DNA from: an uncultured Lachnospiraceae bacterium
Lineage (GTDB): Bacteria; Bacillota; Clostridia; Lachnospirales; Lachnospiraceae
Direction of reading: 5' to 3'
DNA: 64,000 bases
Assembly: GCA_947631665.1 (NCBI GenBank)
Contig: CANRMF010000002.1
Coordinates: 5,885 to 69,884 of the forward strand
The notes under the pieces were generated by a model. The model had not been told where the DNA came from. It made no database searches and saw only the letters and a program-made list of their open reading frames with translations. This document shows positions 19,912-23,383 of the stretch, piece by piece. A program made the position numbers and the translations under genes. How positions within the stretch are numbered: the first letter of the stretch is position 1; the number at the start of each line of letters is the position of its first letter.

Positions 19912-22230
19912 GTTTGAGAACCTTGTAAATTATGAAGAGTGTAAAACCGATGGGAGAAATCTTCCTCGCAAGAGAAGCGTTTGAGAACCTTGTAAATTAT
20001 GAAGAGTGTAAAACTTCATTCCTTGTTTAATCTCTGGAATCATGGTTTGAGAACCTTGTAAATTATGAAGAGTGTAAAACTAATCTTTGTTGGTCAACAA
20101 AGAAAGCATAGTTTGAGAACCTTGTAAATTATGAAGAGTGTAAAACAGCGCCTGCTCATAGGTGTCGGCAAAATACGTTTGAGAACCTTGTAAATTATGA
20201 AGAGTGTAAAACTTTTGTTTCTGCTAAAGAAATAGCACCATTGTTTGAGAACCTTGTAAATTATGAAGAGTGTAAAACAGTATGAATCATCATACAGCAT
20301 TGACGATTGTTTGAGAACCTTGTAAATTATGAAGAGTGTAAAACAGTAGCTGCACCACTATAGCCTGCAGTAGCGTTTGAGAACCTTGTAAATTATGAAG
20401 AGTGTAAAACTGGATAAATTGTGGTGTCTGCCACATAACCGTTTGAGAACCTTGTAAATTATGAAGAGTGTAAAACTGCAAGGTGTTCCTTGTCAATCGG
20501 AACAGGGTTTGAGAACCTTGTAAATTATGAAGAGTGTAAAACCATGTCGCACGATTTTAGAAAACATAAAATGTTTGAGAACCTTGTAAATTATGAAGAG
20601 TGTAAAACAATACCAACAAATAAAAAAAGCGGCTCCAAGTTTGAGAACCTTGTAAATTATGAAGAGTGTAAAACCCGTATGAAGCTTTTAACAGGAAGAT
20701 AGATGTTTGAGAACCTTGTAAATTATGAAGAGTGTAAAACTTTTGTCAGAATTTAGCATACTTACAGGCAGTTTGAGAACCTTGTAAATTATGAAGAGTG
20801 TAAAACGCAAGAATAATTATAAATCAAGCAAAGTAAGTTTGAGAACCTTGTAAATTATGAAGAGTGTAAAACCGGCATGATTAAGCGGTCACCTTTAATT
20901 TTGTTTGAGAACCTTGTAAATTATGAAGAGTGTAAAACTAAAATCTAACTTTCTTATCAATACTTGGGTTTGAGAACCTTGTAAATTATGAAGAGTGTAA
21001 AACTTTGGAGCATTTAAGCTGATACTTGGTGTATGTTTGAGAACCTTGTAAATTATGAAGAGTGTAAAACGCCTTAGAATCTACGGATAGAACAGAATAA
21101 GTTTGAGAACCTTGTAAATTATGAAGAGTGTAAAACGGTGTCTAAAGCGTAACCTCCACCATTATGGTTTGAGAACCTTGTAAATTATGAAGAGTGTAAA
21201 ACTGCACCTTTTGATTTGCCCCGACTTTACAGGTTTGAGAACCTTGTAAATTATGAAGAGTGTAAAACTCATAGCGCCTCTTTTCTTCATTTTCCCGGGT
21301 TTGAGAACCTTGTAAATTATGAAGAGTGTAAAACCTGCTGAACTACATCACTTGCGTATATGTTGTTTGAGAACCTTGTAAATTATGAAGAGTGTAAAAC
21401 GTGAAAATCATACCACTGTCTGATTTAAGGGTTTGAGAACCTTGTAAATTATGAAGAGTGTAAAACTTTGAACAGGAGTGTTTATGAATGAATGTCGTTT
21501 GAGAACCTTGTAAATTATGAAGAGTGTAAAACACCGGATAATTCCATCAATTTTGACTGCGAGTTTGAGAACCTTGTAAATTATGAAGAGTGTAAAACAC
21601 TGTGCGCCACTCTGCGTCAACTCGTGTCGTTTGAGAACCTTGTAAATTATGAAGAGTGTAAAACATCAACGTATGACGTCTTACCACTTAACGGGTTTGA
21701 GAACCTTGTAAATTATGAAGAGTGTAAAACTACATTCCGACAATTACCGGATTTACGCCAGTTTGAGAACCTTGTAAATTATGAAGAGTGTAAAACCTGC
21801 TGAACTACGTCGCTTGCGTATATATTGTTTGAGAACCTTGTAAATTATGAAGAGTGTAAAACTAAAAAGAAAAAAATGGATTAAATGGCAGGTTTGAGAA
21901 CCTTGTAAATTATGAAGAGTGTAAAACTACCTATATTGATATTACTATCAGGGAAGAGTTTGAGAACCTTGTAAATTATGAAGAGTGTAAAACTGTTAAA
22001 GTTGCAAAAAAAGCCGGTATCATGTTTGAGAACCTTGTAAATTATGAAGAGTGTAAAACTGTTCCTTTCGGTACTTCTTTGTAGTCACTGTTTGAGAACC
22101 TTGTAAATTATGAAGAGTGTAAAACCTTAACTATATCGTTGTAAGCAGCATTTCAGTTTGAGAGCCTTGCAAATTATAAAGAGTGTAAAACGGCTGGACG
22201 GGGAGAAAGAGAGGAATATCAGTTTGAGAG
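19912..22230 (+). CRISPR. Type II-A CRISPR array: 35 repeats plus a 36th repeat truncated after 9 nt
   Basis: The repeat is GTTTGAGAACCTTGTAAATTATGAAGAGTGTAAAAC (36 nt). Repeat starts are at 19912, 19979, 20045, 20110 ... 22090, 22156. Spacers are 29-31 nt, mostly 30. Repeat 35 (22156-22191) has 3 substitutions. Only GTTTGAGAG (22222-22230) remains of repeat 36. Confidence 0.98.
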
Positions 22231-23280
22231 TTCCACATCTGACATCTTCGGTGCATGGCCCTTGGTTACTTCAAATTGCTTGCGGAGCAGATTGACCTGA
22301 TTCTTTAAGTCGTCCCGTTCTTCCAGCAATACTCCATAGTCTTCCTCTGCGATATTCCTCATGGAAAACATTCGTCCCTCATTCTCGTCACCATCACTGA
22401 ATTTTCCGTCGCCAGAATTTTTTTCTGTTTTTGAAAATTTACTATTGTCATTTTCGGAATTTCGTGATATATTGTCCTCAAGAGGAGAAGCAAGAGCGTT
22501 TCGGACGTCCGATCTAGGGGCTTGTACATCTAGAGCTTGCGTAACTCTTTTTTTTATGTATGTGGTAACTACCCATAATTTTTTATAATTATTATCTGCT
22601 GCGGTGACGACAACATAATGCACCCCATCAACCTTTTTACTCAGACTTACCATTTTAGCCGGCTTATCGTTCTTATCTCTGAACCACGATGAATACTCTG
22701 GTTCTCCAGTATCCTCATTTACTACTAACTTAGCATCATCATAATTTTCAATGACATATTTCATTCTTGCCACATCTTCAGATTTCGCCATTGTTGTATC
22801 ATGTTCTCCATCGCTTCCATGCCTTCGATAAATGTGCTCATACGCACTCGTATTGATGTTGTTTGTATAGCCTTCAACATCAACTCCTGTCAGTTTTTTA
22901 AAATCTTGCGCCTGTCTGCTGTTAACCTGACTAATGTAGTTTCTCTTAAACGTCTTGTCACCGGCAACGACACTTTCATAATCTTTCTTAATCTTCGGAT
23001 CTACGCTGTCTATATATTCCTGTATTTGAATCTGCTTATATCGTGGATACTGTCCCCGCTCCTTCAATGCTATATTCGTAGTATCTGCATTTTGGAATGT
23101 ATCTTTGTCATTGTCCCTGATATCTGACAAAAATTTACTGTTGCTATTTTCAGAATTTTGGAATATACTATTATCAGAAGGAGCTACATTCTTCAGCACC
23201 TTCCCTTTTTGGGAATACCGCTGTTGGTAGCTTCTTCTTTCTTTGATATGTATTTTCTTTAGTTTCACTATATCATACAA
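22219..23280 (-). CDS. Stop-free internal fragment of a mobile-element polyvalent-protein-like gene (RHG-motif nuclease-like domain). Probably not an independent gene.
   Basis: A 353-codon open frame fills the whole 1,051-nt segment between truncated repeat 36 and repeat 37. It has no ATG or convincing RBS at the 5' end: the ORF-track start is a TTG abutting repeat 37, and the frame stays open into that repeat. The stop lies just beyond the truncated repeat. Motif: YEHIYRRHGSDGEHDTTMAKSEDVARMKYVIENYDD. Confidence 0.5.
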   Translation of the reverse strand: MYDIVKLKKIHIKERRSYQQRYSQKGKVLKNVAPSDNSIFQNSENSNSKFLSDIRDNDKDTFQNADTTNIALKERGQYPRYKQIQIQEYIDSVDPKIKKDYESVVAGDKTFKRNYISQVNSRQAQDFKKLTGVDVEGYTNNINTSAYEHIYRRHGSDGEHDTTMAKSEDVARMKYVIENYDDAKLVVNEDTGEPEYSSWFRDKNDKPAKMVSLSKKVDGVHYVVVTAADNNYKKLWVVTTYIKKRVTQALDVQAPRSDVRNALASPLEDNISRNSENDNSKFSKTEKNSGDGKFSDGDENEGRMFSMRNIAEEDYGVLLEERDDLKNQVNLLRKQFEVTKGHAPKMSDVELSN

Positions 23281-23281
23281 A

Positions 23282-23383
23282 GTTTGAGAGCCTTGTAAAT
23301 TATGAAGAATTTAGAACAATACGATTAAAAAACATCATGGATAATTGGTTTGAGAGCCTCACAAATTATAAAATTTGCAGAAC
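23282..23383 (+). CRISPR. Decayed trailer repeats 37 and 38 with one 30-nt spacer
   Basis: 23282-23317 is GTTTGAGAGCCTTGTAAATTATGAAGAATTTAGAAC (4 substitutions). 23348-23383 is GTTTGAGAGCCTCACAAATTATAAAATTTGCAGAAC (10 substitutions). The spacer at 23318-23347 is exactly 30 nt. Confidence 0.85.

Follow-up and report, generated by a model that had tools for sequence, protein, structure and literature searches.

A kilobase fragment of a polyvalent-protein gene in the decayed trailer of a type II-A CRISPR array

In the type II-A CRISPR system of Streptococcus thermophilus, Cas1–Cas2 first attacks G1 of the leader-repeat junction, and positions 28-32 of the repeat serve as the ruler that sets the second integration site (Kim et al. 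2019, PMC6895254). Here we describe an insert of 1,051 nucleotides (nt) in the trailer of a type II-A array from an uncultured Lachnospiraceae bacterium. The array lies in a 64,000-nt stretch of contig CANRMF010000002.1 (assembly GCA_947631665.1; hereafter the window, to which all positions refer), and the source contig probably belongs to the metagenome-assembled genome of a Lachnospiraceae bacterium from rabbit gut. As in a canonical type II-A acquisition, foreign DNA has entered an array, its one end meets the 5' G of a repeat exactly, on the leader-side strand, and target sequence is duplicated on the other side. Unlike in such an acquisition, the DNA is 1,051 nt long and not 30, the duplication covers 9-10 nt of the repeat and not 36, and the repeat hit is internal, decayed and not preceded by a leader anchor.

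Ruler mutants of the type II-A system (PMC6895254) resemble this locus in that the first site stays fixed at G1 while the second is displaced by the change in the ruler, and the repeat to the right of the insert has a mutated ruler. In those mutants, though, the reported shifts are small, a few nucleotides and at most 8 nt past the repeat border, whereas here the duplication stops 27 nt short of it and the substrate is of kilobase size. Ectopic acquisition at the CRISPR1 and CRISPR3 arrays of S. thermophilus likewise reportedly takes place at an internal and not a leader-proximal repeat (Achigar et al. 2021, PMC7999890). If Cas1–Cas2 made the insert, there is also a likeness to casposon integration by casposase, a Cas1 homologue, in which kilobase DNA is likewise inserted by an enzyme of the Cas1 family and a short target-site duplication results (PMC7786333). 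Within the full-text literature searched, no case was found of a kilobase gene fragment in an array beside a partial repeat duplication. The insert may be a rare record of a CRISPR integrase inserting very long DNA.

The active part of the array (19912-22125, + strand) comprises 34 identical 36-nt repeats, R1-R34, of sequence GTTTGAGAACCTTGTAAATTATGAAGAGTGTAAAAC, with A at position 9 and with spacers of 30-31 nt. Further on, a degenerate repeat with G at position 9, R35 (22156-22191, +), is followed by the 30-nt spacer S35 (22192-22221, +; 3' end AATATCA) and by a stub, GTTTGAGAG, that holds only repeat positions 1-9 and is of the same G9 type (22222-22230, +). Then comes the insert (22231-23281), whose coding sense is on the - strand. 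To its right lie a full-length decayed repeat of the G9 type, R37 (23282-23317, +), the 30-nt spacer S37 (23318-23347, +) and the terminal decayed repeat R38 (23348-23383, +). R37 is intact at positions 1-27, and its ruler positions 28-32 read ATTTA in place of the canonical GTGTA. This layout had been set out in a preliminary description made from the letters alone, and we verified every coordinate of it.

The stub is the left copy of a direct duplication of 9-10 nt; the length may be counted either way because A precedes both copies of GTTTGAGAG. It stands exactly in register with the array, where the chance of finding a given 9-mer at one fixed position is ~4e-6, and past it the similarity to the repeat falls to a random level (8/27). 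The preliminary description had the insert occupying one spacer slot in register. That is right for the stub, but the insert is not literally in a spacer slot, since a 9-nt stub and not a full repeat precedes it; the distance from the stub to R37, 1,060 nt, is no multiple of 66. Compared with a spacer, the insert shares an origin in a mobile element, but it lacks full repeats on both sides and has 1,051 nt against the norm of 30-31 nt.

Judged by its sequence, the insert is a dead fragment, truncated at both ends, of a polyvalent-protein gene from a phage or conjugative element. Polyvalent proteins are found in both kinds of element (Iyer et al. 2017, PMC5512222). The fragment is read in a single minus-strand open reading frame (ORF) of 353 codons (22219-23280), which is entered, with NCBI as its source, as a protein of 353 amino acids (aa) in the protein collection. 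Both its start and its stop come from array sequence: the sole possible start is a TTG formed by the junction, with no Shine-Dalgarno sequence, and the TGA stop is complementary to the final 3 nt of S35. In R37 the frame remains open for another 10 codons. This bears out the earlier account of one open minus-strand frame with repeat sequence at both ends and no credible start or ribosome-binding site. The long stop-free frame is thus present, but it is not remarkable in itself as had been supposed, and merely marks recently acquired coding DNA; recent acquisition follows from the near absence of substitutions in the insert, since among the three assemblies that contain it (see below) there are none except two beside a break in one of them.

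The centre of the ORF encodes a PBECR3 nuclease domain (22549-22926, -; aa 120-245; Pfam PF18812, E = 4.3e-9, 36.7 bits against a cut-off of 30), which HMMER alignments extend to a wider conserved module (aa 55-291, ~22411-23121, -; aa 55-285 by a second delimitation) with its H..RH motif intact. Residues 1-35 look like the tail of a preceding module and are followed by a linker motif of the family, linker 1 (SDNSIFQNSENSNSKF, aa 36-51; 23130-23183, -). A second copy, linker 2 (EDNISRNSENDNSKF, aa 287-300; 22434-22487, -), lies at the end of the PBECR3 module, as the motif also does in homologues, and the presence of two linkers accounts for a 54-nt internal direct repeat of 76% identity. Last come the first ~55 codons of a next, coiled-coil-like module (22231-22395, -), cut off at the left junction. 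Up to that junction its start is 58% identical over 45 aa to residues 227-271 of a homologue, P0004, which extends past the point where array repeat sequence takes over. The tail-like appearance of aa 1-35 and the continuation of the P0004 homology beyond the left junction are what indicate truncation at both ends.

A HMMER scan of 1.84 billion representative proteins found 1,013 relatives of the insert, many of them proteins of 1,500-3,800 aa, and the match is nearly always internal (for example residues 600-850 or 1240-1480). The best 149 of the 1,013 have a median length of 1,292 aa, with 86 longer than 1,000 aa and 53 longer than 2,000 aa. In all four of the large relatives that were scanned for domains PBECR3 is internal; ART-PolyVal occurs in one and LPD23 in one, and one partial relative has an ART-PolyVal ORF next in line. 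The insert is therefore like polyvalent proteins, whose genes carry such further domains too, in its PBECR3 module and typical linkers. It is unlike them in holding ~350 codons with no start or natural stop, compared with the 1,500-3,800 codons normal for these genes: a recognised domain is present, and a full multi-domain ORF bearing a start and a stop of its own is absent. The domain, the mostly internal matches of the relatives and the truncation at both ends agree with the previous suggestion of a foreign internal gene piece and not a gene.

An intact PBECR3 module with its H..RH motif in an uninterrupted ORF could alternatively belong to a domesticated working gene, a stand-alone PBECR3 RNase kept by selection beside the array, and solo PBECR proteins do exist (Iyer et al. 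2017, PMC5512222). Such a gene would have to start from the junction-made TTG without a ribosome-binding site, borrow its stop from a spacer and carry module fragments at both ends; 10 nt are missing from the 5' part of the ORF in one assembly, and the near-identical assemblies show no signal of selection. We consider this explanation extremely unlikely. From these features, expression of the ORF as a protein is very unlikely, and the insert is not a working gene.

A side observation is that a PBECR3 module has been captured in antisense within a CRISPR array. An earlier speculation has CRISPR RNAs as possible targets of the PBECR RNases in polyvalent proteins (Iyer et al. 2017, PMC5512222). 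That the two meet here is probably coincidence.

Transposons and insertion sequences (IS) that land in arrays share with the insert a kilobase interruption and a flanking duplication of the 9-bp class. The insert differs from them in being an arbitrary internal piece of a gene. A duplication of the IS type, (A)GTTTGAGAG, does stand on both sides, though it is ambiguous, being derived from the repeat. We rejected a transposon or IS because the sole long ORF is the PBECR3 fragment, leaving no transposase, and because no terminal inverted repeats are present at 22231/23281; ORF, Pfam and inverted-repeat checks thereby upheld what had been noted on both points. Casposons have terminal inverted repeats, a casposase of their own and duplications of 14-15 bp, all of which are absent from the insert, and a casposon was rejected in turn since neither a Cas1-type casposase nor terminal inverted repeats were found. 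We conclude that the insert is neither a spacer, a transposon, a casposon nor a gene, and that it is an aberrant integration into, or a disruption of, a CRISPR array.

The right junction is real and common to strains from at least two projects. At this junction, the end of the insert, CATACAAA, is joined exactly to G1 of R37. Three independent assemblies, which stem from at least two projects, show this junction without any difference: the window, ENA ERZ27249657 and Logan DRR848775. The ENA contig (NODE_8896) is 99.6% identical to the window over 4.1 kb, and the Logan contig (DRR848775_142925) is 100% identical over 186 nt of insert plus repeats and flank. In both, the insert is joined to R37-S37-R38 and to the same chromosomal flank, which carries the genes for a sigma factor and PepSY. 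As three assemblies contain it, this junction is not an assembly chimera, a check that the preliminary description had called for.

The left junction was not found in a second assembly; small ORFs spanning it are absent from the protein collection, and contigs with an identical csn2 are too short to reach it. It might be that the left junction (22222-22231) is a chimeric join made in metagenome assembly. The probable metagenomic source of the contig, the difficulty of assembling CRISPR arrays and the lack of coverage by a second assembly all speak for such an artefact. The join, though, shares only 9 nt, far under any assembler k-mer, and if a repeat had mediated the chimera, a whole repeat would be expected there. 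The 38 nt at the junction also genuinely continue the gene, as the homology to P0004 indicates, and the right junction has been confirmed three times. Given the short shared sequence and the genuine gene continuation beside it, a k-mer chimera is very unlikely.

The left side of the ENA contig differs from that of the window. Its insert breaks off ~31-38 nt before the window's junction, beyond which lie one unit of a 74-nt tandem-repeat family (~4080-4180 of that contig) and then an unrelated gene. We give this left junction little weight, because coverage of the contig is 1.9x and it differs by four substitutions, clustered at the break, and by two small indels away from it. The indels are deletions of 10 nt in the 5' part of the insert ORF (window 23213-23222), where the Logan contig agrees with the window, and of 4 nt splitting the sigma-factor gene (24596-24599). 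They may be real decay or low-coverage errors. The 74-nt tandem repeat occurs as five units, between an MFS transporter gene and a RelB gene, at 15691-16134 of a contig (L005) of a sister lineage.

The array as a whole is composite. Position 9 is G in R35, the stub, R37 and R38, and A in R1-R34, so that the insert is flanked on both sides by one old repeat subtype. The G9 form is the repeat of an array in another Lachnospiraceae metagenome-assembled genome (L012, minus strand). It had been considered earlier that the flanking repeat pieces might come from two unrelated arrays; they do not, since those on both sides belong to the single G9 subtype. The sister lineage (contigs L005 and L007) has a nucleotide identity of 91% for cas9 and of 96-97% for cas1-csn2, and it has a different terminal repeat at a different chromosomal site (array region 10731-12091 in L005). 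This divergence, together with the mixture of repeats, suggests recombination within the cas operon and array. In a further Lachnospiraceae metagenome-assembled genome (L011, JAAUZI010000013.1), 25 nt at 7024-7048 (-) are identical to positions 1-25 of the G9-type repeat; they sit within a MerR-like ORF with no array nearby, and ~0.02 such 25-nt matches would be expected by chance in the whole collection.

Such a history leaves room for a trimmed remnant, in which a larger piece of a mobile element lay in or beside the array and was later mostly deleted, the stub being left over from a separate repeat R36. Besides the recombination implied by the composite array (A9 and G9 repeats, and the different terminal repeat of the L005 lineage), the ENA contig fits this explanation, in that the same insert and right junction with another left junction suggest that the left side is prone to rearrangement. 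That left junction is, however, unreliable at 1.9x coverage. A remnant also takes at least one event more than a simple insertion, and it leaves the exact G1 junction within the polyvalent gene unexplained, because the element's own junction would be its attachment site and not mid-gene. We regard a trimmed remnant as unlikely.

The right junction has the position and polarity of the first Cas1–Cas2 strand transfer, that is, the repeat 5' G on the leader-side strand. A random endpoint in the 66-nt period would meet a repeat border in the Cas1 polarity with a chance of ~2/66. Further support comes from the complete type II-A adaptation module encoded at the locus, and from the insert being mobile-element coding DNA, of the kind sampled by adaptation machinery. 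On the strength of how the right junction is placed and oriented, of the ruler-less target repeat and of the adaptation type of the DNA, we favor, tentatively, an aberrant adaptation event, in which a long DNA end may have been attached to G1, with the second join falling 9 nt into the repeat.

The simplest history of this kind would start from R35-S35-R37-S37-R38 and place one insertion into a single repeat. The most likely catalyst would be the locus's own adaptation integrase, Cas1–Cas2, acting on the 3' end of long mobile-element DNA and not on a trimmed 30-bp prespacer. Its target would have been an internal repeat whose ruler motif for the second site (positions 28-32) is mutated. The short target duplication would be left by two strand joins spaced 9-10 bp, and the placing of the second after position 9, and not position 36, may reflect either a misplaced transfer or host repair of a half-site intermediate. 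In its fullest form, the proposal would make the insert a fossil of a modern CRISPR integrase acting like its transposase ancestor, with ~1 kb of invader DNA, a casposon-like duplication of 9-10 bp, a ruler-less target and a product still readable as a spacer; we think it improbable that all of this holds.

Several points weigh against an integrase. We know of no Cas1–Cas2 complex that integrates a prespacer 35x the normal length, and the complex measures the length of its substrate. The leader end (19854-19911, +), read directly, closes with the bases ATTTGAG, the type II-A leader-anchoring sequence (McGinn & Marraffini 2016; Kim et al. 2019, PMC6895254). Such a sequence directs type II-A integration, known ectopic events included, and the AATATCA before the target repeat is unlike it. 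The ectopic events in S. thermophilus reportedly involved spacers of normal length, full repeat duplication and a preceding spacer end that mimicked the leader anchor. The target duplication is weak evidence because, with the right junction at G1, any left endpoint within any repeat would mimic a duplication. The left junction is present in the window assembly only, and no donor sequence reaching past the ends of the insert was found in the phage, plasmid, IMG/VR and protein searches. The insert is moreover one case, from what is probably a metagenome-assembled genome.

With no integrase known for such a substrate and no leader-anchoring-like sequence in front of the target, the insert might instead have arisen by illegitimate capture independent of Cas proteins. 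A break or template switch in a trailer repeat would have allowed stray mobile-element DNA to be ligated or copied in, the flanking duplication would come from a 9-10-nt staggered break or from microhomology, and the exact G1 junction would be coincidental. Consistent with this, the insert is without element ends, and the trailer is decayed and presumably neutral, so scars may persist there. The chance of hitting the border exactly, ~3%, is not negligible for a finding that was picked for its oddness. Even so, a rare event would have had to hit an array of ~2 kb, exactly at a repeat border and in the Cas1 polarity, and no microhomology is visible apart from the duplicated AGTTTGAGAG. We hold illegitimate capture to be rather unlikely, though it, or a trimmed larger insertion, is almost as probable as an aberrant adaptation event. 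The insert is real and unusual, yet it is a single case, and one example cannot prove an origin by integrase.

If Cas1–Cas2 did make the join at G1, the locus would provide in vivo evidence of an adaptation integrase inserting kilobase DNA. This would bear on the casposon origin of CRISPR and on the use of Cas1–Cas2 for integrating long DNA, and it would mean that selecting array expansions by the size of polymerase chain reaction products misses a class of events. If the event was independent of Cas proteins, the insert is a well-documented scar showing that decayed trailer repeats can accommodate a large foreign insert and that such fragments will be called as genes by annotation pipelines. 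Either way, an ORF running from repeat to repeat within an array should count as a captured fragment.

Searches for the donor gave no match among INPHARED phages or PLSDB plasmids, by nucleotide search and tblastn, and no relative in a peptide scan of IMG/VR. Among 5.8 billion proteins the only matches were the insert itself, a nearly identical copy and three partial relatives, at 46-74% identity, on short contigs. There is no second copy of the insert elsewhere in the window, nor any sequence there that could be its donor. As for the uninterrupted site, neither the exact terminal repeat nor a degenerate repeat pattern occurs in JGI metagenomes, and the species-representative genomes yielded only an unrelated solitary match and the array of another species. 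No array accompanies the closest neighbours of the sigma factor in other species (66-68% identity).

We compared 77 distinct spacers of this and related arrays with the insert and its homologues and saw no match, and because of this homologous recombination between a spacer and its protospacer is disfavoured; it was rejected also on the ground that the junctions lie in repeat and not in spacer sequence. Integration of a circular donor through 10-nt homology was set aside as unhelpful, since the ends of the insert give no continuous frame when joined through the 10-mer.

The unit formed by the insert and R37 could still yield an ordinary CRISPR RNA (crRNA), with the guide GTTTCACTATATCATACAAA followed by GTTTGAGAGCCTTG. 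Type II-A crRNAs retain only the last 20 nt of the spacer, next to the downstream repeat. It is because of this trimming, and because R37 is predicted to pair with a candidate trans-activating CRISPR RNA (tracrRNA), that a normal crRNA is possible. The candidate lies upstream of cas9 (13700-13815, -), and has an anti-repeat at ~13790-13815, followed by hairpins and an end made of a stem-loop and a U-run, as in a terminator. Its anti-repeat shows 13 nt of identity to repeat positions 9-21, with a bulge opposite positions 7-9, and the predicted duplex is of -24.0 kcal/mol with R37 and of -21.6 kcal/mol with the canonical repeat. No Rfam model matches the candidate above threshold; a sub-threshold match to Rfam HrrF covers the same span. 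The guide GTTTCACTATATCATACAAA could target the polyvalent gene of the donor if a protospacer adjacent motif is present there. No intrinsic terminators were found in 21900-23800, and read-through of the array would make RNA antisense to the polyvalent gene.

The cas operon (13840-19853, +) precedes the array and consists of cas9 (13840-18006, +), cas1 (18003-18875, +), cas2 (18865-19185, +) and csn2 (19182-19853, +). Their products match, above cut-off, the Pfam families Cas9_REC/PI/RuvC/HNH/BH, Cas_Cas1, CRISPR_Cas2 and Cas_Csn2, respectively. Since Pfam identifies these four genes in one operon beside the array, the type II-A assignment given previously is right, and the 36-nt repeats, the ~30-nt spacers and the leader ending in ATTTGAG accord with a locus of this type.

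Directly upstream of the CRISPR-Cas locus lies an ORF of 4,388 codons with a TTG start (322-13488, +), which has no Pfam domain above threshold and only a weak galactose-binding-like match. As a donor of the insert it was rejected, having no similarity to the insert and no polyvalent-protein domains. Within the active array, two spacers at 21335-21364 (CTGCTGAACTACATCACTTGCGTATATGTT) and 21797-21826 (CTGCTGAACTACGTCGCTTGCGTATATATT) match at 27/30 positions; they are alleles of one protospacer that were acquired independently.

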